Of a stretch of 64,000 nt of DNA, positions 32,888 through 59,699 are shown piece by piece. A program made the translations under genes and the position numbers. The DNA is from Actinomycetota bacterium. Its GTDB lineage: Bacteria > Actinomycetota > Actinomycetes > S36-B12 > FW305-bin1. How positions within the stretch are numbered: the stretch's first letter is position 1; every line of letters starts with the position of its first letter. The stretch spans positions 79,440-143,439 of the forward strand of contig SCTR01000002.1 of the NCBI GenBank assembly GCA_004297305.1, in the 5' to 3' direction. The notes under the pieces are model-generated. The model saw only the letters and a program-made list of their open reading frames with translations, did not search any database and had not been told where the DNA came from.

Positions 32888-34387
32888 TCAGGCCCGGCCG
32901 ACGAGGTCGGCCACGATCTCCGCGGACAGGCCGACCAACGGCAATCCGCCGCCGGGGTGGGCGGACCCGCCGACCAGGAAGAGTCCGGGCAGCGGGGACC
33001 GGTTGGCCGGCCGCAGGAACGCCGCTCGCGGTCCGTTGCTGGCCGAGCCGTAGATGGCGCCGCCGGGCGAGTGGGTGTCCGCGGCGATATCGGCCGGCGT
33101 GCGGATTGCCCGCCACAGCACGCGGTCGCGGATGTCGACCCCGCGCCGCGCCAGGACGGCCAGCAGGTGATCGGCGTACGCCTCGGCCACACCGGGCGCC
33201 CGCCAGTCGACGGTGCCGTCCTGAGCCGCCGCGCTGCCGTGGCGCGGTGCGTTCACCAGGACCGACCAGGCCTGCCCGTCCGGTGGCCGCATCGCGTCGT
33301 CGTCCGGATTGCAGATGTAGATCGCCGGATCGTCGACCGGTCGCGGGTCCCGGCCGAACAGTGCGTCGAACTCCGCGTCGTAGTCGGCCGGGAAGAACAC
33401 GTTGTGGTGCAGCAGCTTCGGGTCTCTGCCGCGGAGGGCCAGCAGGAGGGAGAAACCCGACGACGAGGCGGTCGCCCGGCTCACCCGCCGTACGGCGCCC
33501 CGCAGCCGGCGGTCGCTCGGGACCAGTTCGGTGTACAACTGTCGCGCGTCGGTGTCGGCGACGACGACGTCCGCGGCCAGCCGCTCCCCGCCGGCCAGCG
33601 CGACTCCGGTGACCCTGCCGCCGTCGGCGGTCACCTGGACGACCTCGGTGCCCAGCCGCAGCTGCACACCTCGTTCCCGGCACCGCTCGGCCAGCGCGTC
33701 GGCCAGCGTGGCGAGTCCACCACCGAGGTGCCAGGCGCCGAACAGTTGTTCCACGTACGGGATCGTCACGAGGGCTGCCGGTGCCCGGCGCGGATCCGCC
33801 CCGGTGTACGTCGCGTACCGGTCCAGCAGCGTGACCAGCCGTGGATCGGCGAAGTGGCTGCGCCCCAACGAGTGCAGCGACCGCCAGGGGGCAACCGCGC
33901 GCAGGTCCTGCGGCCGGCGGGCGAGCGGGAGCAGGTCGCGGGCGCCGGCCACGGGCGAGGACAGCACCGGGCCGCGGGTCAGCGACCACACCGCCGCCGC
34001 GCGCTGCATCAGTGCGCGCCAGTCTGCCGCGGCCCGGCCGCCGAAGGCGTCGCCAAGGGCCTGCGCGCAGCGACCGGGGTCGACGCCGGGCATCGTCAGG
34101 TGCGTGCCGTCGGCGAAGTGGTAGCCGAACCCGGGATCGACCGGACGCAGGTCGACCGACTCCTCCAGCGCGCGACCGGTCTTGTTGAACAGGTCCCGGT
34201 AGACCGCCGGCAGCGTCAGCAAACTCGGCCCGGTGTCGAAGACGAACGCGCCGTGCCGGGTGCTGGCCAGTTTGCCGCCGTACGTCGTGGCCTGTTCGAC
34301 GATGGTGACGTCGTGCCGTTTCACTCGCAGCCGGGCAGCGACCGCCAGGCCGGCGACGCCGGCACCGATCACCACGATCCGGGCCAC
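32888..34387 (-). CDS. Phytoene-desaturase-family oxidoreductase (CrtD-like hydroxycarotenoid 3,4-desaturase candidate)
   Basis: FAD motif IVVIGAGVAGLAVAARL and a CrtI-family C-terminus (LFLVGGSAHPGGGLPLV). GTG 34387 is 8 nt after TAGGGT (plus-strand coordinates 34396-34401). Confidence 0.8.
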   Translation of the reverse strand: MARIVVIGAGVAGLAVAARLRVKRHDVTIVEQATTYGGKLASTRHGAFVFDTGPSLLTLPAVYRDLFNKTGRALEESVDLRPVDPGFGYHFADGTHLTMPGVDPGRCAQALGDAFGGRAAADWRALMQRAAAVWSLTRGPVLSSPVAGARDLLPLARRPQDLRAVAPWRSLHSLGRSHFADPRLVTLLDRYATYTGADPRRAPAALVTIPYVEQLFGAWHLGGGLATLADALAERCRERGVQLRLGTEVVQVTADGGRVTGVALAGGERLAADVVVADTDARQLYTELVPSDRRLRGAVRRVSRATASSSGFSLLLALRGRDPKLLHHNVFFPADYDAEFDALFGRDPRPVDDPAIYICNPDDDAMRPPDGQAWSVLVNAPRHGSAAAQDGTVDWRAPGVAEAYADHLLAVLARRGVDIRDRVLWRAIRTPADIAADTHSPGGAIYGSASNGPRAAFLRPANRSPLPGLFLVGGSAHPGGGLPLVGLSAEIVADLVGRA

Positions 34388-34414
34388 GGCGGCCGACCCT
34401 AGACGGCCACCGCG

Positions 34415-35557
34415 TCACGGCAGCCGGCGGTCCTTCCAGGTCAGTGAGCCTCGGCGATGCCGTTGGTACGACAGCCACGACAGCGCCGCCAGGCAGCTGA
34501 TCGACACCGGATGGGCCAGCGCGTCCGGCCAGCACCGTGAGCCGGTGCGACGCCCGCAGATCACCCGGCTCGCGACCCCGGCCGCGTAGCCGGTGGCACC
34601 CAGCAACCGGGTCGCGGTGTCCGGCGACAGGATTGCGGCCGCCGGCGGCACGACGTAACAACCCAGCAGCAACGCGACGATCGCTGCCGACCGACCGGGC
34701 GACCCGCCGGCCGCCCACAGCGACTTGGCGTACCCGTCGACCAGGGCGCGGGCGCCGACGTACATCCGGCATCGCGCGATCGTCGACCCGTCCGCGACGC
34801 TGCCGCGACCTCCGGTGGCGAGGACGCGGCGCAGCAGGGCGATGTCGTCGAGCACCTCCCCGCGGATCGCCGCATGGCCGCCGGCGCGCCGGTAGGCGGC
34901 GGCGTCGACGGCGAGAAGTTGCCCGTTGGCGACGGCCAGCGACGGCCGGGGAGACCGCTCGGCCCACCGCAGTGGCACGGTGGTGAGCCACGACCAGCAC
35001 AGCAGCGGTTGGACCAGCCGTTCCAGCCAGCTGTCCGCCAGCTGCCGCGGGTACGGCGACACCAGGGCATACCGGTTGCGCCGCAACAGGTCGACCGTGG
35101 CAGCGACGCCGTGCGGGGCGACCACCACGTCCGCGTCGAGGAAGACCAGGACCGAACCGGTCGCAGCGTCCCCGAGTTGCTGGCAGGCCCACGGTTTCCC
35201 CAGCCAGCCCGCCGGTGGCTCGGACGCGACGCCGGACAGCAGCCGGACCCGGGGGTCGGCAGCCGCGAGCGCCGCCACGACGGCGGCTGTGTCGTCGCGC
35301 GAGGCGTCGTCGAGGACGAGGAACTCGGCGTACGGCAGCCCGGTCTGCTGCTGCAACGCCGCGACACATGGCCCGATGGTCGCCGCCTCGTTGCGGGCGG
35401 GAATGAGCACGGACACCTTCTCCTGCACCGGTTCCGGGTTCTGGCGTGGCCGGCGTAGCAGCCGCGCGTTGATCCCGCTGTGGATCGCCCCGGCGATCGC
35501 GGCCGCTGCTGCCGCCGCCACGACGGTCCGGACGGCGAGCGCGCCGGTCGGCCTCAC
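34415..35557 (-). CDS. Family-2 glycosyltransferase with C-terminal TM region (carotenoid glycosyltransferase candidate, CruC/CrtX-like)
   Basis: GT2 motifs VSVLIPARNE, VLDDASRDDT and FLDADV. GTG 35557 overlaps the upstream stop (GTGA). Confidence 0.75.
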   Translation of the reverse strand: MRPTGALAVRTVVAAAAAAAIAGAIHSGINARLLRRPRQNPEPVQEKVSVLIPARNEAATIGPCVAALQQQTGLPYAEFLVLDDASRDDTAAVVAALAAADPRVRLLSGVASEPPAGWLGKPWACQQLGDAATGSVLVFLDADVVVAPHGVAATVDLLRRNRYALVSPYPRQLADSWLERLVQPLLCWSWLTTVPLRWAERSPRPSLAVANGQLLAVDAAAYRRAGGHAAIRGEVLDDIALLRRVLATGGRGSVADGSTIARCRMYVGARALVDGYAKSLWAAGGSPGRSAAIVALLLGCYVVPPAAAILSPDTATRLLGATGYAAGVASRVICGRRTGSRCWPDALAHPVSISCLAALSWLSYQRHRRGSLTWKDRRLP

Positions 35558-36348
35558 CGGCGCGCGGTCCAGGTGGTCCAGGCCCAGGGCAGGACGACCA
35601 GGCCCATGAGCAGCCCGCCCCACAGCGCCACTGCCGGCCGGTCGAAGAAGACGGCGTTGGCCACGACGTTGCCGACGAAGGTCCACGTCAGCAGCAGGGC
35701 CGGGACGCCGTCACTGGCGCGTCGGTCCGGCAGCCGATCCAGCAGCAGCATGAGGACGAAGGCCGTGAGCAGCCAGCCGACGTAGTTCTGCAGCGGCACA
35801 GCGGGAATCCCCGGCAACGCCGGATCGGTGACCGACCAGAGCCAGTGCCCGTCGGCGACCATCTGGCTGTCCAGGAAGATGTCCCAGGTGGCCAGCAACC
35901 AGGCTGCCAGCAAGGGCCGCAGCAAGGGCGAGGCGGACAGCGCCCGGCCGGCCAGCAGACAGGGATAGGCCATCATCGACCAGGCCAGGGCCACCACGAC
36001 CGGGACGTCGCCGATCCGTGGACCGAGCGAATCCCCATACACATACTCCCCGAAGGGGAATCCGGTACGAGTTCCCAGGATCTCGACGGCGAGGCCGAGC
36101 CCGGCGGAGATGACCAGGAAGCCGCTGGCCCACGCCAGGCCGCGATGCAGCAGCGCATGGCTGGCCGAGGCGAGGAAGAAGCAGCACACCACCGCGATGG
36201 TGAGCGCGTCGCGGTCGCCGTCGACGAGCACCCAGACGATCTGCAATGCCACGGTCGCCACGGTGAGGCACCAGGGCACGACCTGACGCAGTCCACCCAC
36301 CGGCGACGCCCGGTTGGAGTGCGGCCCGGTGTAGACGCGCACGCTCAC
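35554..36348 (-). CDS. Carotenoid biosynthesis membrane protein (PF04240/CruF-like 1',2'-hydratase candidate)
   Basis: Polytopic 264-aa protein with GFPFGEYVY and LAWSMMAYP-type motifs seen in the 'carotenoid biosynthesis protein' family. The start is uncertain (36348 or GTG 36300). Confidence 0.65.
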   Translation of the reverse strand: MSVRVYTGPHSNRASPVGGLRQVVPWCLTVATVALQIVWVLVDGDRDALTIAVVCCFFLASASHALLHRGLAWASGFLVISAGLGLAVEILGTRTGFPFGEYVYGDSLGPRIGDVPVVVALAWSMMAYPCLLAGRALSASPLLRPLLAAWLLATWDIFLDSQMVADGHWLWSVTDPALPGIPAVPLQNYVGWLLTAFVLMLLLDRLPDRRASDGVPALLLTWTFVGNVVANAVFFDRPAVALWGGLLMGLVVLPWAWTTWTARR

Positions 36349-36405
36349 CGGGGCGCCTGCCAGTGCGGCGGGAGCGGCCGGCCGGCGCGGGACACGCAGC
36401 GCATC

Positions 36406-37152
36406 CTAGGGACGGCGGACCGGCTGGCCGTCGAAGGTTCCCTCGACGTCGTCCAGGGCGAACCGGGCGAACAGTTCCTCGCCGTACCAGGCTCGATCGC
36501 GGGTGGCCGAGATCACGGAGCGATGCGCCGAGCGGCGATGGGCGAACTCGACGAGTTCCTCGGCGCTGGCCCAGATGCTCACGGTCCCCTGCAGCAGGAC
36601 GGGAGCTTCGCCGACGGCCACGGCGAGCAACGGACGGGGTCCGCCGGACCACAGGTCGGTGGTGACGGCGGGGACCGCGGCGGCGAACTCCCGCCAGCGG
36701 CCCGGTCGGACCCGCGCCCGCGTGACGGCCACCACCGGTCCCTGCCAGGGCTGACGCCGTGCCCCGGCCGCACCGGCCGGACTGCCGAACGGTTCGCTGC
36801 CCGACCAGCTGCCGCGGCTGCTCAGCGGCCGCAGCCGTAGCCGCAGCCGCTCGGTGGCCATCGCGTTCCACCCCCGCAGGGCGGGCTGCTGGTCGGCCCG
36901 GTCGGCGTCCTGCGCCCGGTCCCAGGCCACCAGCGCCGCCCATCGTCGTACGTCGGCGCCACCGGCACCGAAACTCGTCCCCGGGCCGGTCCCGAGGAGT
37001 TTGGCGAAGCGGACGCCGGGGAGCCGGCGCAGTTGCCGGCGCCCGGTCGCCACCCGCAGCAGCGCGCGGGGGACCGCGGCGCGCGAGATCCGCCAGACGT
37101 CGAAGGTGACCAGCTCGGGAGGGTCCGGCGACCTCGCGGCGGAGCCGGACAT
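36406..37152 (-). CDS. CrtA (spheroidene monooxygenase)-like two-repeat protein; carotenoid oxygenase candidate
   Basis: 248 aa built from two similar halves of about 110 aa (VTFDVWRISRAAVPRAL... and VVAVTRARVRPGRWREF...). The position is contiguous with the carotenoid genes. Family recalled, not verified. Confidence 0.45.
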   Translation of the reverse strand: MSGSAARSPDPPELVTFDVWRISRAAVPRALLRVATGRRQLRRLPGVRFAKLLGTGPGTSFGAGGADVRRWAALVAWDRAQDADRADQQPALRGWNAMATERLRLRLRPLSSRGSWSGSEPFGSPAGAAGARRQPWQGPVVAVTRARVRPGRWREFAAAVPAVTTDLWSGGPRPLLAVAVGEAPVLLQGTVSIWASAEELVEFAHRRSAHRSVISATRDRAWYGEELFARFALDDVEGTFDGQPVRRP

Positions 37153-37225
37153 GGCTGGACCGTACCGGCCCGATCCCGTCCGCCGAAGGGGTTGCGCTCA
37201 AGCTGCGGATCCACGACGCTAGGAG

Positions 37226-37241
37226 TCGAACACACGTTCGA
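37226..37241. promoter_or_regulatory. LexA (SOS) box, actinobacterial type
   Basis: A perfect TCGAAC-ACAC-GTTCGA palindrome matching the TCGAAC-N4-GTTCGA consensus. It lies in the divergent spacer, 125 nt upstream of the HEPN-like gene. Confidence 0.7.
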
Positions 37242-37365
37242 TCGTGACTGGTTCGGCCCGTACCGACGCGGTTGTCAGACCGTCGGACCAGCATCGAGCA
37301 GTGGCCGGGTGGCCGGGCGCGGCTGACCGCGACCGACCCCCACCGACCGCGACAGAGGAGGGCAC

Positions 37366-37899
37366 ATGGGATCACTGCAGACCGCCACGACTCGGGAGAC
37401 CCGTGCCCGACGGGCCGCGGTCGAACACGCCCGGGGGCGACGAGGTGTGCCGCGGCCGCCGGTGCCGGTGGCCGCTCGCGACCTGCTCAACGGGGCGGCC
37501 CATGGTCTGCAGGAGGCGGGTCACGCCGTGCAGATCCCGCAGCGCTACGCCCTGGCGCATCTGGCGGCGCTGCGAGCCGCGGCAGCGGTCCTGGCTGCCC
37601 GGGCCCAGGCTCCGATGGGTCGATCACGGGTTCGCAGCGTCTGGGCGCTGCTGCCCGATGTCGCTCCCGAACTCGCGGAGTGGTCGGCGTACTTCGCCGC
37701 CGGAGCCGGCAAGCGGGCCGCAGCCGAAGCAGGTCTCTCGCGGGCGGTGACCGCCCGCGAGGCCGACGACCTGCTGCGCGCCGCCGAGACCTTCCTCGCT
37801 CTGGTGGACACGACGCTCGGGGTCGATCGCTACCCGGCCCGTCCCGACTGGCCGGTCGAGCGCGTCGACGCCGGGGTGCAGCTCCGACCGGTCGGCTGA
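37366..37899 (+). CDS. HEPN-domain protein (SAV_6107-family-like)
   Basis: 177-aa Ala-rich helical protein with the R-x4-H motif RYALAHLAALRAAAAVLA and a ...VTAREADDLLRAAETFLALV segment. SD GAGGAGGG precedes ATG 37366. Confidence 0.65.
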   Translation: MGSLQTATTRETRARRAAVEHARGRRGVPRPPVPVAARDLLNGAAHGLQEAGHAVQIPQRYALAHLAALRAAAAVLAARAQAPMGRSRVRSVWALLPDVAPELAEWSAYFAAGAGKRAAAEAGLSRAVTAREADDLLRAAETFLALVDTTLGVDRYPARPDWPVERVDAGVQLRPVG

Positions 37900-37996
37900 G
37901 CGCCCAGGAATTCCCGTACGGCTGCGTCGTGTCGGCGGAGCGCGTCGATGCGGCGGCCGGGGTAGGGGTCGGGATACTCCAGTTGAGGAGGACGAG

Positions 37997-39361
37997 GTGA
38001 GTCGCAGCCAGCTTCGCCGGTCCGGTGGGACGGCGAGCCGACCGCGGCCTGCTGCTGACGACGCCGAGGCGACGGTCCTCCACGTCGACATGGACGCCTT
38101 CTACGCCTCGGTGGAACTCATCGACCGGCCGGAGCTGGTCGGCCGCCCTGTCATCGTCGGCGGCGCCAGTCCGCGCGCCGTCGTGCTGTCAGCGACGTAC
38201 GAGGCGCGCGCTCTCGGCGTGCACTCGGCGATGCCGATGGGCCGGGCGCTCCGGTTGGCGCCCCGGGCGGTGGTCATCGAACCCGACCACCGGCGGTACA
38301 CCCGGGTCAGCGAAGGGATCATGGCCGTCTTCGGCGACATCACGCCGTATGTCGAGCCGCTCAGCCTGGACGAGGCATTCCTCGACGTGAGCGGCGCGGT
38401 CCGCCGGCTCGGCAGTCCCGCCGCGATCGCCGCGCTGATCCGGGCCAGGATCCGCGACGAGCAGGGCATCACCTGTTCGGTCGGCGCAGCCAGCACGAAG
38501 TTCGTCGCGAAGCTGGCCTCGACGCAGGCCAAGCCGGACGGGTTGCTCGTCGTCGCACCGTCCGAGGTGGTCGCCTTCCTCCATCCGTTGCCGATCGGCG
38601 CGCTGTGGGGCGTCGGCGAACGGACCGAGCAGGCGCTGGTGCGTCGCGGGCTGCTGACAGTGGGCGATGTGGCGCAGCTGCCGGTTGAGACGCTGCAGCG
38701 AACTCTCGGGCCCGCCGCCGGCGCCCACCTGGCGGCGCTGGCGTGGGGTCGCGATCCGCGCCGGGTCGACCACACCGCGCGCGAACGCAGCATCGGCGCG
38801 GAGGAGACGTTCCCCCGTGACGTGACGGACGTCGACGTGCTCGCCCGCGAACTGCTCCGGCTCTCCGAACGGGTCGCGCGCCGACTGCGGGCGGCCAACC
38901 TGGTGGGGCGGACCGTGGCGTTGAAGGTCCGAGACCCTGACTTCACGACGGTGACGCGGTCCCGAAGCCTGCGCGATCCGACCGACGTGGCTAAGGAGAT
39001 CTACGCGACGGCGTGCTCGCTGCTGGCCGGGCTTGGCCGCGGCGCGGCTCCGACGCGGCTCGTCGGGGTCCGGGTCGAAGGGCTGACCGACGTCGCGACC
39101 GCCTCGCGGCAGCTCACCTTCGGTGCTGCTGACCACGGCTGGCGTGATGCCGAACGGGCCGTGGACCGCTTGGCCGACAGGTTCGGCAAGGGCTCCGTCC
39201 TGCCGGCGAGCCTGGTCGCCGCGCGAGGGGATGGGAGCGTCGTACGCCGAGCGACCGGCGACGAGCCGTCCGCGCGCCGACCGCCGGGGGACGACGGCGT
39301 CCGCCGCCGGGAGAAGAAGGGTGTGCCGGCGCCGCCGCGCCGGCGCGGACCGGACCGGTGA
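37997..39361 (+). CDS. dinB: DNA polymerase IV (Y-family)
   Basis: VLHVDMDAFYASVE, SLDEAFLDVSG and CSVGAASTKFVAKLAS motifs. GTG 37997 is preceded by GAGGAGGACGAG. Confidence 0.9.
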   Translation: MSRSQLRRSGGTASRPRPAADDAEATVLHVDMDAFYASVELIDRPELVGRPVIVGGASPRAVVLSATYEARALGVHSAMPMGRALRLAPRAVVIEPDHRRYTRVSEGIMAVFGDITPYVEPLSLDEAFLDVSGAVRRLGSPAAIAALIRARIRDEQGITCSVGAASTKFVAKLASTQAKPDGLLVVAPSEVVAFLHPLPIGALWGVGERTEQALVRRGLLTVGDVAQLPVETLQRTLGPAAGAHLAALAWGRDPRRVDHTARERSIGAEETFPRDVTDVDVLARELLRLSERVARRLRAANLVGRTVALKVRDPDFTTVTRSRSLRDPTDVAKEIYATACSLLAGLGRGAAPTRLVGVRVEGLTDVATASRQLTFGAADHGWRDAERAVDRLADRFGKGSVLPASLVAARGDGSVVRRATGDEPSARRPPGDDGVRRREKKGVPAPPRRRGPDR

Positions 39362-39518
39362 GGCTGTTCGGGAACGGCCTCACCGGCGCCGGCGTTGCCC
39401 GAATGCGCCCAGTACGGGACGTCAGGACACGGTTTGGCACATCCGCGCCCGACTCGGGTTTCCACCCGGGCGGGGCCTGCCTATCCTGTGCATACCAGGT
39501 CGGGAGGAGGGGACGGCC

Positions 39519-39932
39519 ATGCCGCTCTCCGAGCACGAGCAGCGACTGCTCGAGCAGATGGAACGGGCCCTCTATCAGGAGGACCCGAAGTTCGCGTCCA
39601 CGCTGCGTAGCGGCGCGTCCGGACGCGCCCACCGCACCCGGGCGATCCTGGGCATCGTCGCCTTCCTCGGCGGTATCGCCCTGCTGCTGTCGGGGGTTGC
39701 GACGACCTGGATCTGGCTCGGCGTGCTGGGCTTCGCCGTGATGCTGGCCGGTGCGCTGCTCGCCTACGGAGCCCTGCGGCCTCGGGCGCAGCCGGCGGCC
39801 GCCGGCGAGGGCCCGCGAGAGGCCCCCGGCCCCGGTCCGGCCCCTGCTGCGGCCAAGAAGCCGCGGTCGTCGACGTTCATGCACCGGGTCGAGGAGCGGT
39901 GGCGTCGCCGGCGGGACTCCGGCGACATCTGA
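39519..39932 (+). CDS. DUF3040-type small membrane protein
   Basis: MPLSEHEQRLLEQMERALYQEDPKFA N-terminus followed by two TM helices. SD GGGAGGAGGGG precedes ATG 39519. Confidence 0.75.
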   Translation: MPLSEHEQRLLEQMERALYQEDPKFASTLRSGASGRAHRTRAILGIVAFLGGIALLLSGVATTWIWLGVLGFAVMLAGALLAYGALRPRAQPAAAGEGPREAPGPGPAPAAAKKPRSSTFMHRVEERWRRRRDSGDI

Positions 39933-40095
39933 CCAAGGCGCCACCTCACCCACCCGGCGGTCCTCGTTCGGGCCGACGTCGCCTCAGGACGTGTGACGAC
40001 TCTGTCCGTATGGGCTGTCGTCGTCCGGCTGCGACCCTCAGGCGTTCCGTTGTGGCTGCTGTCCGCGACGTGCTGCCGTCGGGGTGCCGGGCGGA

Positions 40096-42462
40096 CTACG
40101 GCCGCTCGCCGTACAGCGATCGCGGCATCAGCCGGGCCCGCAGCCGCGCCCATCGGGTGACCGAGGCGTCGAAGCCGCGGCGGATGGCCGCGACATCGGT
40201 GCCCAGATCGTCCTCCACAGCGCCGGCGCGCGCATAGCGACTGTGTTCTGTCGCCTGCACGATTCGTTGGAGCGCAACCGATTCCGCTGTCCCGACAGCT
40301 CCGGTCGAGACCAGGCGGGCGCCGGCCTGCCGGGGAGTGTCGGCGTCCCGCCACGGCAGGCCGTAGTCGACCGCGCTGTCCCGCAGCTCCGCCCAGGCCC
40401 CTTCGGCCAGCGCGGCCGGTGCCGTGGCGGTGAGCCGTCGCCGGCGTCGTAGCGCGCGGGCCAGACCCGGGGCCGCACCAGCCAGCAGGGCGGCCGCCAC
40501 GATCGCCACGACGAGGAAGCGACGTCCCGCCCCGGCTCCGTCCGACACCTCGGCTTCGGGGTCCGGTGCCGCCGTCGTAGCAGGGTCCTCGCCGACCTCG
40601 GCCGCCGCAGTCGGCTCCGGGAGTGATGGCGGGTCCTCGGTCGTGCTGGTCTCGGGGGCCGCGTACGGCGGGGTCGTCACACCGGCGGCGTCCGCGCGCG
40701 GCGTCGGCTCGAATCGCACCCAGCCGACGCCCCCGAACCACAGCTCGGGCCAGGCGTGCGCATCGTCCGCGGCGACCACGAAGCTGCCGTCCTGTTGCCG
40801 CTTGCCGCCGGTGAAGCCGACGTCGACCCGGGCCGGTATTCCCAGGGTGCGGGCCATGATGGCCATGGCAGCCGCGAACTGTTCGCAGTAGCCGACCCGT
40901 TCCCGCAGGAACTGCACCAGGTGGTCCTCGCCGCTGCCGGAGGACACGGTGGTGCTGTAGCGGAAGCCGCCGTCGCGGGTGAACCAGTCCTGCAGCGCCC
41001 GCGCCCGGTCGTACGGATTGGTCGCGCCGCTGGTGACCTGGCTGGCGATCCGGCTGATCTCGGAGGGCAGGTCGGCCGGCACCGCCAGCACGCTGCGCAG
41101 CGATTCGGTCGGTTCGGCGGTGGCGGCGCGTAGCTGCCGGGCGGAGGTCGGCAGGTCGTACAGGTTGGCCGTGATCGTCTTGCCTCGGGCAGTGTCGGTG
41201 GGGGAGAAGATGACCTGGGTGTCGGCGTCGAAGTACCAGGCACCGCTGACGGCGAGGTCGCGCGCCGGATACGGCAACGGCAGGACGGAATTGCCGAGTT
41301 CGCCGATCTTCAGCGTGATGGCGGTGACCGCTGGCTGCGCGGACAGGGTGTAGTCGGTCAGGGCCGGCAGCCGGTCGGCGCGTCGCCGCGGCGAGGGGGT
41401 GTAGGTGTCGGCGCTCCACGACTGACCGTCGAAGTTCTCCAGGGCATACATCCGCAGATACCGCGGCTGGCCGTCGTCGGTGGTGTACGTCGCCACCTGC
41501 CGGCCAGAGTTGTCGACCAGGTCACGTCGTAGCGACACCAGCGGGTCGAGGTTGACCGTGGCACCGTCGCCGGAGGCGCTACCCAGGCGGGCGAACAGCG
41601 GTGCGGTGAAGCCCGGGACAACGGACGGCAGGACGACCGCCGCGGCCAATGCCAGGACCGCGGCGACGGCGAGCCGCCGGCTGTCGGTGCCGGCCAAGGC
41701 TGCTCGGCGGCGCCGGGGATGCGCCCTGGGCCCGGACGACAGTGCTGGCCGTGACGACGGCACTGGCCCGAAGGACGGTGCTGTCCCCGACGACAGTGCG
41801 GGCCGGGTGGTTCGCGGTGGCCGGCCGGTGGCGGCTCGACCCCACCGTCGGACGTGCCCGCGCTGGTCGACCGCGAGCAGCAGCAGCCAGCCCGCGGCAC
41901 CGGCGACGAACGCCCAGGCCGGAACGCCGGTCGTCCACAGCACTGCGGAGGTGACGATGTACAGCCCGAGCAGCGGTACGCCGGCCAGGGCCGGGTGACC
42001 GAACCCGACGGCGAGGGCGTCGACGGCGATCGCGACCAACGCGAGCGCTCCGACGGTCAGCGGCAGCAGGCCGGCGGTGACCGGTACCGGGATGACGAGC
42101 GCCGCGCTGTCGTTCATCCCCGAACGCACCAACGCGCGCAGCGTCTCCAGCGCGGCTGGACTCGGCACGAAGCGCAGCAGAGCGGCGCCGGGGGCGTACA
42201 GCGCCGTCAGGAACGTCAGGACGGCAGCGGCCTGCAGCAAGGGCATCACCGCGGCGGGCACCCGGATCGCTCGGCCGACCAGACCTGCCCCCGCGACCAC
42301 GACCACCGCGATCGCCGCCGCCGGCAGCCACTGCGCGGTCCGGAACACCGGCAACAGCCCGAGGCTGGTGAGCAGGGTGGCGCCCGCCGCCGCAGCCGTC
42401 GCGGCCGGCCTGGCCCGGTCCCGCCACCGACTGACGCGGCCGCCTCGACTCACGATCGCCAC
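40096..42462 (-). CDS. Transglutaminase-like membrane protein (TgpA/DUF3488 + transglutaminase core)
   Basis: N-terminal multi-TM region. Cys-His-Asp core GYCEQFAAAMAIMARTLGIPARV...DAHAWPELWF. GTG 42462 lies 4 nt after the DUF58 stop. Confidence 0.85.
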   Translation of the reverse strand: MAIVSRGGRVSRWRDRARPAATAAAAGATLLTSLGLLPVFRTAQWLPAAAIAVVVVAGAGLVGRAIRVPAAVMPLLQAAAVLTFLTALYAPGAALLRFVPSPAALETLRALVRSGMNDSAALVIPVPVTAGLLPLTVGALALVAIAVDALAVGFGHPALAGVPLLGLYIVTSAVLWTTGVPAWAFVAGAAGWLLLLAVDQRGHVRRWGRAATGRPPRTTRPALSSGTAPSFGPVPSSRPALSSGPRAHPRRRRAALAGTDSRRLAVAAVLALAAAVVLPSVVPGFTAPLFARLGSASGDGATVNLDPLVSLRRDLVDNSGRQVATYTTDDGQPRYLRMYALENFDGQSWSADTYTPSPRRRADRLPALTDYTLSAQPAVTAITLKIGELGNSVLPLPYPARDLAVSGAWYFDADTQVIFSPTDTARGKTITANLYDLPTSARQLRAATAEPTESLRSVLAVPADLPSEISRIASQVTSGATNPYDRARALQDWFTRDGGFRYSTTVSSGSGEDHLVQFLRERVGYCEQFAAAMAIMARTLGIPARVDVGFTGGKRQQDGSFVVAADDAHAWPELWFGGVGWVRFEPTPRADAAGVTTPPYAAPETSTTEDPPSLPEPTAAAEVGEDPATTAAPDPEAEVSDGAGAGRRFLVVAIVAAALLAGAAPGLARALRRRRRLTATAPAALAEGAWAELRDSAVDYGLPWRDADTPRQAGARLVSTGAVGTAESVALQRIVQATEHSRYARAGAVEDDLGTDVAAIRRGFDASVTRWARLRARLMPRSLYGERP

Positions 42463-42466
42463 CGGG

Positions 42467-43813
42467 TCACGCCGGCGCCCCGGCGCTACGGGCCGGCGGC
42501 TGCCGCAGTACTCCGGCACCCGACGGGCCTGCCGTGCCCGCGATCGATGGGCCCGTAACCGATGGGCCCGCTATCGATGGGTGGACCAGCCGGCGCCAGA
42601 TGTCCGGTACCGGCTCGGTGGCCGACGCCGGGACCGCCTGCCAGCCGGCCCGCCGCAGCCGGCTCGCCGTACCCGCCGCGCCCCGATCGTCAGCGCCGTT
42701 CGGCGCGTGTCGGACGTCGGCCGGATCGGTGCGCAGGGCGACGGCCAGCCCGACCACGCTGCCGGCCCGCAACCGGCTCAGCTGCTCAGCCTCGACGGCG
42801 TCGAGTTCGCCCAGGACCGCCACGATCAGGCCCGCGCCCCGGGTCGCTGCAGCCGACGGCCGCCACGCCCGTGACGGTGTGGGCTGCAGGACCGCCAGCG
42901 CGTCGAGGAGTCCTGCCTCGGCTTCCGTGCCTGGCCGGTCGGCCGTCACCAGGACCCCGCCGTCGCCGTCGATCACCACGACGGCCCAGCCCCGCCGGAT
43001 CAGGTGGACTCCGACGCTGGCGACCGCCGAACAGGCCCATTCGAAGGTGGACTGCGCTCCGGTGCCGCGGTGCGCGCTCGATCGGGTGTCGAGCAGGATC
43101 GCCGCCCGGCTACGCCAGGGCCGTTCCTCCCGGCGCACCATCAGCGCACCCGCCCGGGCTGTCGACCGCCAGTGGACTCGCCGCAGTTCGTCGCCCACGT
43201 GGTACGGCCGGGGGATGACGTCGTCGTGACCGGCGCTGGACATGGTGCCGGCGCGGCTGTCGCCCTGCCCGCTCAGGTGACCGGCCAGCGGCAGGTCCGG
43301 CAGCCGGTGGACCGGGGGCGTCACCAGCAACGTGTCGGTCGCGGTGAACGAGCGGGATACCCGAGTCAGCCCGAACGGGTCCACCAGGCGGACCGACAGC
43401 GGGCCGACGGCGAAGCGGCCGCGTTGCTGCGGCCGCAGCCGGTAGTCCAGCGCAGCCGATCCGTACGCCGGCACCTGGTCCAGGACGAAGCGTTCGCCCG
43501 GGCCGAGCGCGGCGGGCACGGCGTCCTGGCACAGCACGAGCCGCGCCGGCAGCCGGGAGGCGTTGTCGATGGTGAGCCGTACCGTCGCGGTGCTTCCCAT
43601 CGCCACCCGGGGCTGGTCCAGGCCACGGGTACAGGCCAGCCGCTGTCGTGACCGGCTGACGACCACTGCGCAGCCGATCGGCAGCGCCAGCACGAGGACC
43701 GCGACGCGCAGCAGGTCGCGTTCGCCGATGAGCATCGCGCTGCCGAGCAGGCCGACGCCGGCGGCCAGCAGCACCCGGCCGCGCGCGGTCAACGCCCGCA
43801 GGGCCGCTCGCAC
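42467..43813 (-). CDS. DUF58-domain protein (MoxR-associated)
   Basis: Two N-terminal TM helices and the DUF58 core (RPYHVGDELRRVHWRSTAR). The start shares 1 nt with the moxR stop (TAGTG). Confidence 0.8.
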   Translation of the reverse strand: MRAALRALTARGRVLLAAGVGLLGSAMLIGERDLLRVAVLVLALPIGCAVVVSRSRQRLACTRGLDQPRVAMGSTATVRLTIDNASRLPARLVLCQDAVPAALGPGERFVLDQVPAYGSAALDYRLRPQQRGRFAVGPLSVRLVDPFGLTRVSRSFTATDTLLVTPPVHRLPDLPLAGHLSGQGDSRAGTMSSAGHDDVIPRPYHVGDELRRVHWRSTARAGALMVRREERPWRSRAAILLDTRSSAHRGTGAQSTFEWACSAVASVGVHLIRRGWAVVVIDGDGGVLVTADRPGTEAEAGLLDALAVLQPTPSRAWRPSAAATRGAGLIVAVLGELDAVEAEQLSRLRAGSVVGLAVALRTDPADVRHAPNGADDRGAAGTASRLRRAGWQAVPASATEPVPDIWRRLVHPSIAGPSVTGPSIAGTAGPSGAGVLRQPPARSAGAPA

Positions 43814-58860: not shown

Positions 58861-59699
58861 ACGCCCCCGCCGGCCCCGCTCGGGCCGTGGCTGTCGGTAC
58901 GGCGCCGCACCGTCAGGACACGGCAGCCGGCGGTTCGCCGAGCGGTTCGGTGTCGGGCCCGTCGCGGCGCGGGCGTCGGGTGCTGTCGCGGCTGCGGCTG
59001 CGGCTGCGGCTCGGCGGGTCCGGCGGCGGGCGGCGGCGTCGGCGGACCGCTGTCGTGGCCGGCGTCGTGCTGGCGGCGCTGCTGCTGATCGGCGGCTGGC
59101 TGGTGGGGTTCTCCGGCGTCCTGGCGCTGCGGACGGTGACGGTGCAGGGCGCATCCGAGGCGACGATGACCGCCGTCCGCGACGCCGTGGCCGACGAGGT
59201 CGGCCGGCCGCTGCTGCGGGTCGACACGGCCGCGGTGCAGTCCCGGATCGCGGCGATCCCGCTGGTGGCGACCGCGACGGTGACCCGCAGCTGGCCGGAC
59301 TCGGTCATCGTGGTGGTCACCGAACGGATCGCCGTGGCCGTCGTCGGAGATGCCACGGGCGGCTTCCGCGTCGTCGACGCGACCGGTGTGACGCTGCGGA
59401 CCACGGCGAGTCGGCCCAGCGACCTGCTGTTCGTCAAGGACGTCACGGAGCCCGCCGCGCTGGCGGCGGCCGTCGCCGTCGCGGCGACGCTGCCGGCCGA
59501 CCTGGCCGGCCAGGTGATCGCGATCTCCGCCACGTCACCCGACGCGGTGTCGCTCAAGCTGTCCGGCGGTGCCGTCGTGCGCTGGGGCAGTGCCGAACGG
59601 CCTGAACTGAAGGCGGCCGTCCTCGCCGCCTTGCTGCCCCGCCACGCGACGACCTACGACGTCTCGGCGCCCGAACTCCCCACGACCTCAGGCGGCTGA
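58857..59699 (+). CDS. ftsQ: Cell division protein FtsQ
   Basis: ATG 58857 overlaps the murC stop (ATGA). Basic N-tail, TM helix, POTRA-like segment (LRTVTVQGAS...VRDAV). Position before ftsZ supports the call. Confidence 0.85.
   Translation: MNAPAGPARAVAVGTAPHRQDTAAGGSPSGSVSGPSRRGRRVLSRLRLRLRLGGSGGGRRRRRTAVVAGVVLAALLLIGGWLVGFSGVLALRTVTVQGASEATMTAVRDAVADEVGRPLLRVDTAAVQSRIAAIPLVATATVTRSWPDSVIVVVTERIAVAVVGDATGGFRVVDATGVTLRTTASRPSDLLFVKDVTEPAALAAAVAVAATLPADLAGQVIAISATSPDAVSLKLSGGAVVRWGSAERPELKAAVLAALLPRHATTYDVSAPELPTTSGG

Follow-up and report, generated by a model that had tools for sequence, protein, structure and literature searches.

DnaE2-dependent mutasomes drive damage-induced mutagenesis and the evolution of drug resistance in actinobacteria. 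The mutasome cassette of mycobacteria is ImuA'-ImuB-DnaE2 (Warner et al. 2010, cited in PMC8682763). Two further modules, DnaE2B-[ImuB-C]-PolY-RecA and DnaE2-[ImuB-C], occur in Actinobacteria only (PMC12926913, 2026; PMC6511836, 2019), and according to the 2026 survey (PMC12926913) imuA and imuB are missing from genomes that have DnaE2B-type polymerases. The locus described here lies in a stretch of 64,000 nucleotides (nt) from an Actinomycetota bacterium (contig SCTR01000002.1, positions 79,440 to 143,439), referred to below as the window. It consists of a LexA operator (SOS box), a gene for a HEPN-fold protein of the SAV_6107 family and dinB, the gene for DNA polymerase IV (Pol IV).

A first-pass annotation, made from the DNA letters and a list of open reading frames (ORFs), had proposed a LexA-controlled HEPN protein linked to a Y-family polymerase and considered this not to be a described system. 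The comparison with relatives reported here indicates that the segment is probably a reduced form of a conserved, damage-inducible translesion-synthesis operon of actinobacteria, with the HEPN protein as an accessory factor. The family is already known from Pfam and a 2013 census, and the cassettes from papers of 2010, 2013, 2019 and 2026 (PMC6511836 and PMC12926913 among them), and the claim of novelty does not extend to these. It does appear to hold for the place of the SAV_6107 family in mutasome cassettes and for its LexA control, of which no earlier description was found. The terms 'HEPN', 'DUF6504', 'PF18726' and 'SAV_6107' are absent from the main text and supplements of PMC12926913, 'HEPN' is absent from the main text of PMC6511836, and no paper was found in the literature that links HEPN, SAV_6107 or DUF6504 to LexA, imuB, dnaE2 or mutasomes.

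Association of the HEPN-fold gene with SOS polymerases

Eighty loci encoding relatives of the window's HEPN-fold protein, obtained from a scan of one genome per species, were sorted by gene context using tblastn with locus-derived queries, and LexA boxes were sought within 1.1 kb upstream of each family gene. The family gene was found directly upstream of DnaE2-type, ImuA'-ImuB or DinB genes in 71 of the 80 loci, and within the mutasome operon it almost always comes first or second. A perfect LexA box precedes it in 42 loci, and a box with no more than one mismatch in 71. The functional link to translesion polymerases that had been supposed from the window is thus strengthened, and nine annotated contexts in which the gene follows DUF6504 (see below) point the same way.

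Four classes of context were distinguished. In class I (21 loci) a DnaE-family polymerase directly follows the HEPN gene. A box with no more than one mismatch is present in 19 of them, and in 19 a small DUF6504 gene (PF20114) lies between the box and the HEPN gene. Class II, the largest with 46 loci, mostly from Micromonosporaceae together with a few unclassified metagenome-assembled genomes (MAGs), has the order HEPN, ImuA', ImuB and mostly DnaE2, the last being present downstream of imuB in most loci whose sequence reaches far enough. The ImuA' of this class matches NF058630 (E 7e-53), and 43 of its loci show a box with one mismatch or none. Such a box also precedes all four loci of class III (HEPN, methyltransferase, DinB), while the four of class IV (HEPN, methyltransferase, DUF3040; three Streptomyces and one MAG) have no box. 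The remaining five, which are solo genes or sequences too short to classify, all have a perfect box.

Direct adjacency of the HEPN gene and dinB was observed in the window and at no other examined locus. At the other loci either ImuA'-ImuB or a DnaE2-type polymerase, the latter sometimes with a methyltransferase, stands between the two genes or in place of DinB. DinB is thus not the main or customary partner of the HEPN gene.

The contexts of nine other members, annotated with Pfam, all show DUF6504 followed by HEPN, with a divergent tRNA_edit gene first (a peptidase S8 gene in L083; related loci are cited by our own numbers). The six that reach far enough continue with a DnaE-type polymerase, sometimes a methyltransferase, and then DinB, and DUF3040 and transglutaminase genes come after DinB wherever the locus extends that far. 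The polymerase in these contexts measures about 1190-1380 aa where its gene was called whole. In four well-resolved loci the genes are closely spaced, DUF6504 and HEPN lying 4-21 nt apart and HEPN and the polymerase 5-49 nt, and gaps of up to 166 nt occur in L086, L090 and L091.

At 1311-1381 aa, the DnaE-family polymerase that comes after the HEPN gene is of unusual length (L083:6535-10632, L084:6506-10483, L086:6599-10744 and L089:7488-11423). The class I polymerase scores under the NCBIfam cutoffs of both the replicative DnaE and the error-prone DnaE2, shares only 31-35% identity with the DnaE2 located after imuB in Micromonosporaceae, and presumably represents the 'DnaE2B' group of PMC12926913. 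DUF6504 is probably a stand-alone ImuB-C, an assignment that draws on cassette composition and the literature. Profile comparisons were weak or negative on this point: an hhalign comparison of DUF6504 with the C-termini of Micromonosporaceae ImuB was negative (10 columns aligned), an hmmsearch was weak (E ~6e-4 in 46 sequences), and Pfam found nothing on the ImuB tails at E 10.

A class I S-adenosylmethionine (SAM) methyltransferase with a weak, under-cutoff CmoM-like match (L054:4413-5117, L030:4465-5214, L083:10682-11443) is frequently found before dinB, following either the polymerase or the HEPN gene. It stays beside the HEPN gene in Streptomyces and is missing from the window and from L086. 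L076 (CAMDKQ010000009.1), which is labelled as a Bifidobacterium breve MAG, contains a class I cassette with box, DUF6504, HEPN, DnaE-type polymerase and DinB; it may be mis-binned, since the cassette was otherwise seen here solely in other actinomycete lineages. L091 has an insertion of a Zeta-toxin/ParD-like pair upstream of its cassette (L091:4545-5507), and the polymerase gene was called in fragments, which may be due to long-read frameshifts.

Association of this kind is guilt by association and gives no mechanism, and the family also persists without an adjoining polymerase, both in Streptomyces, where the order is HEPN, methyltransferase, DUF3040, and as solo copies (L051, L067, L088), solo copies with LexA boxes being among them. 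These observations would fit a damage role unrelated to polymerases, such as in a checkpoint or in cell division and morphology, with the adjacency reflecting a conserved chromosomal region beside the dcw cluster; the locus does lie near genes for DUF3040 (the SCO2097 'morphological protein' family), transglutaminase, MoxR and mraZ. However, in Micromonosporaceae the gene sits in another neighbourhood, directly before imuA'-imuB-dnaE2, so that the mutasome association is found in two independent genomic contexts, and the gaps to DUF6504 and the polymerase are short. A polymerase-unrelated role is accordingly regarded as very unlikely, and cooperation of the SAV_6107 HEPN-fold protein with translesion polymerases is somewhat favoured.

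The solo family gene of Nonomuraea gerenzanensis (L088, NZ_LT559118.1 4336547-4336813) has two LexA boxes, each with one mismatch, 480-520 nt upstream. A Nonomuraea 'plasmid' of 11.85 Mb was also the sole family match in a search of a plasmid collection; the L088 replicon, 'plasmid I' in PLSDB, is of this size, almost unannotated and evidently a chromosome. The LexA-regulated plasmid operon pvnz_37140-37135 of S. venezuelae gave no SAV_6107 match in that search, the presence of pSVJI1 in the collection being unchecked.

The LexA operator and the putative promoters around it

The operator TCGAAC-ACAC-GTTCGA (TCGAACACACGTTCGA) is the only perfect match to TCGAACN4GTTCGA in the 64 kb of the window (37226-37241), as first reported, where about 0.001 would be expected by chance from the base composition (72.6% G+C). 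Sites with up to two mismatches number nine in the window against 2.5 expected, and none of 100 shuffles reached nine; one of these sites lies within the HEPN ORF (37620-37635). In the related loci, 43 perfect boxes were found in 85 kb of upstream sequence compared with two in 548 kb of other locus sequence, which is about 140-fold per kb, and four extra loci obtained by exact-protein look-up (L083-L086) have perfect boxes too. L039 and L054 have the exact 16-mer of the window at the orthologous position. While the box stays, its divergent neighbour varies from locus to locus (tRNA_edit, peptidase S8 or DM13; CrtA-like in the window), which ties the box to the HEPN operon.

In relatives, the 45 nt upstream of the box form a conserved promoter consisting of TTGACG or TTGCG, usually TGTCGG, a TACNNT -10 element and then 8-9 nt to the box. 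This arrangement spans Frankiales, Nanopelagicales, Propionibacteriales, Jiangellales, Micromonosporales, Kitasatosporales and many MAGs. The fixed position 8-9 nt after the -10 element places the box at the transcription start in these relatives. LexA control, originally proposed from the window's operator, gains support from this conservation upstream of orthologues in many actinomycete orders, at the start of a conserved promoter.

A TGTCGG motif at a fixed distance from the -10 element is the RecA-independent, PafBC-type (RecA-NDp) element of mycobacterial imuA'/B and recA (PMC8682763). Upstream of family genes, 90 kb of sequence contain the pattern TGTCRG-N10-YANNNT 28 times, against nine in 1283 kb elsewhere (~44-fold). 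With this relaxed -10 (YANNNT) it was found in 28 of 85 related loci, mostly as TGTCGG-N10-TANNNT, and in most pattern-bearing loci it directly precedes the LexA box, about 30 nt upstream. These patterns suggest dual LexA/PafBC control of the family operons. The only other match in the window, TGTCGGTACGGCGCCGCACCGT at 58892-58913, is located about 15 kb past mraZ/rsmH, where dcw cell-division genes are expected; about one chance match per 128 kb is to be reckoned with.

The candidate LexA-controlled promoter of the window, P1, was aligned with 11 relatives having TTGACG/TTGCG-(TGTCGG)-N-TACNNT, 8 nt and the box. Its -35 hexamer is kept, as in L039. Several observations nevertheless weigh against LexA control of the HEPN gene at this particular locus. 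The -10 column reads CACGAC against TACNNT in the family, with both nearly invariant T's gone, and there is no TGTCGG upstream of the box. The sole good TGTCAG-type promoter lies downstream of the box, beyond LexA occlusion. The box is palindromic and stands in a divergent spacer, 74 nt from the start of the crtA-like gene, so it could also, or solely, serve that gene. In addition, Streptomyces orthologues have no LexA box, and no family member is listed in the S. venezuelae LexA chromatin immunoprecipitation (ChIP)/RNA-seq supplements. A generic sigma-70 consensus scan of 37100-39560 returned no promoter and no terminator.

The downstream element begins 21 nt past the end of the box, with its TGTCAG core 31 nt past it (TGTCAG-N10-CAGCAT, 37273-37294), and appears to be a complete but weaker variant of the TGTCGG type. 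All four box-less Streptomyces-type loci carry TGTCAGTG-N8-CAnnAT at the same place, near the gene. The TGTCAG..CAnnAT form is thus seen near the gene both in the window and in Streptomyces-type loci, in the latter without a box and in the window past the box. A LexA-independent, PafBC-type input at the window locus is plausible from these motifs.

It might then be asked whether the window box is a relic, or serves the crtA-like and carotenoid genes, with HEPN-dinB transcribed from the TGTCAG-type (PafBC-like) promoter or constitutively. The degenerate -10, the lost TGTCGG and the full cCGACG-4-TGTCAG-N10-CAGCAT past the box, like that of the box-less Streptomyces loci, would agree with this, and a minus-strand CACGAT hexamer abuts the box, which makes a crtA-directed start inside the box conceivable. 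On the other hand, a relic would hardly keep 12 of 12 consensus positions while adjacent promoter bases changed. The -35 TTGCGC is retained, and an alternative -10 for P1, GACGCT (37215-37220, 17-nt spacer), would let transcription start inside the box. In relatives the divergent partner varies and the box stays with the HEPN operon; to our knowledge, LexA control of carotenoid genes has no precedent. A relic or carotenoid-directed box is therefore judged unlikely. Since all 12 consensus positions are kept, LexA likely does repress HEPN-dinB in the window genome; because the promoter around the box departs from the family consensus, this repression is less certain than in relatives.

The HEPN-fold protein

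The 177-aa ORF matches PF18726 (HEPN_SAV_6107) over residues 55-147 with E 2.6e-34 (118.1 bits, gathering threshold 27.2), so the SAV_6107 family that the first-pass annotation had named was the right one. The family is a large one, with 5770 homologues that have the same Pfam label and, in a separate count, 949 clusters at 50% identity. The AlphaFold2 (AF2) model has a mean predicted local distance difference test (pLDDT) of 87.8 and a predicted template modelling score (pTM) of 0.74, with helices at 35-53, 57-79, 101-121 and 130-151 and a helical insert at 80-100. Its top three Foldseek matches in the PDB are the HEPN proteins 2hsb, 1wol and 3o10 (probability 1.0, TM 0.60-0.64, E a modest 0.04-0.26), and on this model the SAV_6107 protein has a HEPN fold. 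A sequence search of solved structures gave no meaningful match, the best being a designed protein at E 0.26.

Conservation was assessed on 81 locus-derived sequences and 84 diverse representatives. Conserved residues are R60, Y61, A64, H65, L69, R70, R79, W93, P101, E105, W106, F110, K116, R117, E121, G123, R131, E132, D134, D135, R138 and F143. At least 90% of members retain R60 and H65, and no other His is conserved. The R-x4-H motif that had drawn attention in the first place, RYALAH, corresponds to R60..H65. It is indeed conserved in homologues, and the expected resemblance of the predicted structure to known HEPNs was found, but the motif is not the canonical HEPN catalytic one. RYALAH lies in the N-terminal part of helix 2. 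The canonical Rx4-6H motif is located where helix 3 ends or where the loop between helices 3 and 4 starts, and SAV_6107 was placed in the HEPN-M clade with the motif entered as 'No' and no genomic context noted (Anantharaman et al. 2013, PMC3710099). In the present sequences this site reads K116-R117-A-A-A-E-A-G123, with the Arg invariant and no His at 122-124 in any of the 81 sequences. By its sequences, then, the SAV_6107 family does not have the defining motif of catalytic HEPN RNases.

In an up-down topology the N-terminus of helix 2, the C-terminus of helix 3 and the N-terminus of helix 4 fall at the same end, so the conserved polar residues R60, H65, K116, R117, E121, R131, E132, D134, D135 and R138 would cluster at one end of the bundle, the canonical active-site end, with R70 and R79 apart. 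Ten long members (239-302 aa) considered as possible Rosetta-stone fusions show PF18726 only, and their extensions are probably miscalled starts.

These features also bear on whether the protein could be an SOS-induced RNase or RNA binder, acting as a brake on growth or translation or in RNA clearance, with the catalytic His moved to H65 and paired with R117. The strong conservation of R60 and of H65, and a polar cluster that on the model topology lies where HEPN active sites are, can be read in this way. There is also a precedent in the LexA-regulated dinB operon of E. coli, which encodes YafN-YafO, YafO being an mRNA interferase. Alternative His positions are known in AbiV and AF0298-like HEPNs (PMC3710099), and AF_0298 (2hsb) is the best fold match. 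Against such a role, the canonical His is missing from all 81 sequences and the family is listed without the motif. No MNT or antitoxin gene was found in the window or in ten annotated contexts, defence and toxin models (PADLOC) gave no significant match (E ~0.03), and the gene's tight place in the operon, with ImuB-C on one side and the polymerase on the other, points to a subunit of a complex. The RNase or RNA-binder role is thus considered improbable.

Whether the SAV_6107 protein is non-catalytic is judged an even call, and its being an unrecognised, non-catalytic component of the mutasome is put forward tentatively, as a possibility short of even. A mutasome subunit or regulator with a rebuilt pocket (R60/H65 plus R117) that acts on RNA at stalled forks, be it transcripts, R-loops or primers, is most unlikely; if true, a HEPN RNase would for the first time be linked directly to translesion synthesis.

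A structured leader in relatives

A two-hairpin leader between the box and the first gene of the operon was found in 51 of 89 related loci (for example L033:3638-3731, L039:3608-3698, L086:5363-5452 and L007:3775-3863). A long GC stem that carries the invariant loop GUGGGGAAGC makes up hairpin 1; the invariant loop of hairpin 2, C(C/U)UUCC(U/C)CCG, resembles an anti-Shine-Dalgarno sequence, and the two loops are complementary to each other. Compensatory changes (covariation) occur in 11 of 19 pairs. A covariance model of the leader, R1, gave 51 matches at E<0.01 in the 89 loci, all on the plus strand in the leader and none elsewhere in 748 kb, and neither the window region nor six related loci matched any Rfam family. 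The leader is put forward as a candidate for a new cis-regulatory RNA in SOS mutasome operons.

Model R1 finds no leader RNA in the window, which is a point against the proposed reading of this locus as a reduced SOS operon. The HEPN leader of the window does contain a tandem direct repeat, GGCCGGGT/GGCCGGGC (37303-37318), partly like the 5' arm of hairpin 1 in relatives, GCCGGCCGGGTG, and this repeat may be a remnant of the leader RNA.

The window locus as a probable reduced cassette

The features of the locus are collected in Table 1. The dimensions given in the first-pass annotation, namely the 213-bp divergent spacer, the 177-aa ORF and the 97-nt gap before dinB, are correct, and the end of the LexA box lies 124 nt from the HEPN ATG. 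The same gene order was found in two independent assemblies (NCBI GCA_040959485.1 and Logan SRR25508712), so that the HEPN-dinB arrangement is not an assembly artefact.

Table 1 Coordinates of features at the SOS box-HEPN-dinB locus (positions in the window)
Feature	Position	Strand	Details
CrtA-like gene	36406-37152	-	Divergent; terminal gene of carotenoid cluster; context, outside the cassette
Divergent spacer	37153-37365		213 bp
Candidate LexA-controlled promoter P1 (putative)	37192-37220	+	-35 TTGCGC, 37192-37197; -10 column CACGAC, 37212-37217
SOS box (LexA operator)	37226-37241		Palindromic, perfect consensus
Second promoter-like element, RecA-NDp/PafBC type (putative function)	37263-37294	+	cCGACG-4-TGTCAG-N10-CAGCAT
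Shine-Dalgarno of HEPN gene	37355-37362	+	GAGGAGGG; rated good
SAV_6107-family HEPN-fold gene	37366-37899	+	177 aa; Pfam PF18726
HEPN-dinB spacer	37900-37996	+	97 nt
Shine-Dalgarno of dinB	37985-37992	+	GAGGAGGA
dinB (DNA polymerase IV, Y family)	37997-39361	+	454 aa; GTG start; NF003015, PF00817, PF11799
DUF3040/SCO2097-family membrane protein	39519-39932	+	NF058603 (E 1.9e-45), PF11239; conserved downstream boundary of the cassette

The dinB product scores 399 bits against the NCBIfam Pol IV model NF003015 (PRK03858; cutoff 367), contains the IMS and IMS_C domains and retains the catalytic D-x-D and S-L-D-E motifs, so it is an active-looking Y-family polymerase by its motifs. It shares 54-66% identity with the terminal DinB of full cassettes in relatives. 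Its C-terminal tail gave no match to DUF4113/RecA-NT even at E 10. In the HEPN-dinB spacer, a consensus scan found no promoter- or terminator-like site and tblastn found no remnant of a methyltransferase or DnaE gene; co-transcription of the two genes may be inferred.

Both flanks of the cassette in the window are conserved with distant relatives. On the carotenoid side (32888-37152, minus strand) are CrtI-like oxidase, GT2, CruF-like and CrtA-like genes. The last, divergent from the HEPN gene, matches spheroidene monooxygenase NF045923 with E 8e-43 and 146 bits against a cutoff of 300, and would by this under-cutoff score be only CrtA-like. On the downstream side (39519-43813) are DUF3040 (SCO2097 family), transglutaminase, DUF58, MoxR, mraZ and rsmH. 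The order DUF3040, transglutaminase, DUF58, MoxR, mraZ is common to L086, L089, L090 and L091, and L086 and L089 share the carotenoid cluster as well.

In relatives, the fullest order is a PafBC-type TGTCGG promoter, the LexA box at the start, the structured leader, DUF6504, HEPN, a DnaE2-type polymerase, sometimes the SAM methyltransferase, dinB and DUF3040. No DUF6504, DnaE2-type polymerase, methyltransferase, ImuA' or ImuB gene, nor any remnant of one, was found in the 64-kb window, and the closest relatives examined (64-69% identity) still have DUF6504 before HEPN. The window is a remnant, not a member, of the DnaE2-based mutasome cassettes, and by gene content it appears to be a deletion derivative that keeps the box, the HEPN-fold gene and dinB. 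That it descends in this way from an SOS translesion cassette is held with high confidence. It illustrates how such a cassette erodes while retaining its operator, its HEPN-fold gene and Pol IV.

Proposed regulation and function

LexA bound at the SOS box would repress a promoter starting at or just before the box, going by the geometry in relatives. On DNA damage, RecA-stimulated cleavage of LexA would release the HEPN-dinB transcript, and the downstream TGTCAG-type promoter may add PafBC-dependent, LexA-independent induction. The HEPN-fold protein most likely has no canonical RNase chemistry and would serve SOS polymerases as a small, helical protein with an accessory or regulatory function, with its conserved polar end (R60, H65, K116, R117, E121, R131, E132, D134 and D135) possibly binding a protein partner or nucleic acid.

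The HEPN-fold gene is the most persistent element of the cassette, comes at the first or second place of the operon, appears to be under the same LexA and PafBC-type control and is missing from current mutasome inventories. These four properties make it a testable candidate for a missing accessory factor. It is relevant to how DnaE2B systems lacking ImuA and ImuB are assembled and controlled, and it would exemplify the recruitment of a HEPN fold outside toxin and defence contexts.

Comparison with known systems

The dinB-yafN-yafO-yafP operon of E. coli is LexA-repressed and encodes Pol IV together with small accessory genes, one of them for an RNA-targeting toxin. The window resembles it in having a LexA box, Pol IV and a small gene, but the families are unrelated, and in E. 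coli dinB comes first and a cognate antitoxin is present. From the HEPN RNase toxins (HEPN-MNT, RnlA/LsoA, Cas13 and Csm6) the SAV_6107 family differs in lacking the canonical His and an MNT or antitoxin partner, and it is found in a chromosomal SOS operon instead of a defence island.

With the ImuA'-ImuB-DnaE2 mutasome the relationship is closer. The M. tuberculosis imuA'/B genes are under dual control by a LexA box and a PafBC-type element (PMC8682763), and the same pairing is seen in family loci; in Micromonosporaceae exactly such an operon starts with the family gene. In M. tuberculosis itself, rv3395A lies divergently upstream of imuA', an unrelated arrangement, and no HEPN-fold member has been described there. 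The window is without imuA', imuB and dnaE2. The DnaE2B-[ImuB-C]-PolY-RecA module resembles the full cassette of the relatives in its small stand-alone beta-rich protein (DUF6504), DnaE2-type polymerase and active Y-family polymerase, and by composition the class I cassette is a module of this type. The DnaE2B-[ImuB-C] modules as described do not include the SAV_6107 HEPN-fold gene, and of the cassette's proteins the window keeps HEPN and PolY only.

UmuD', YolD/YqjX and the stand-alone ImuB-C, for example in the Geobacter lexA-imuB-C-polY operon (PMC6511836), are likewise small proteins whose genes lie immediately before that of an SOS polymerase and are regulated together with it. UmuD', YolD/YqjX and ImuB-C are beta-rich proteins of SH3-like or beta-barrel type, whereas the SAV_6107 protein is all-alpha and is found alongside ImuB-C rather than instead of it.

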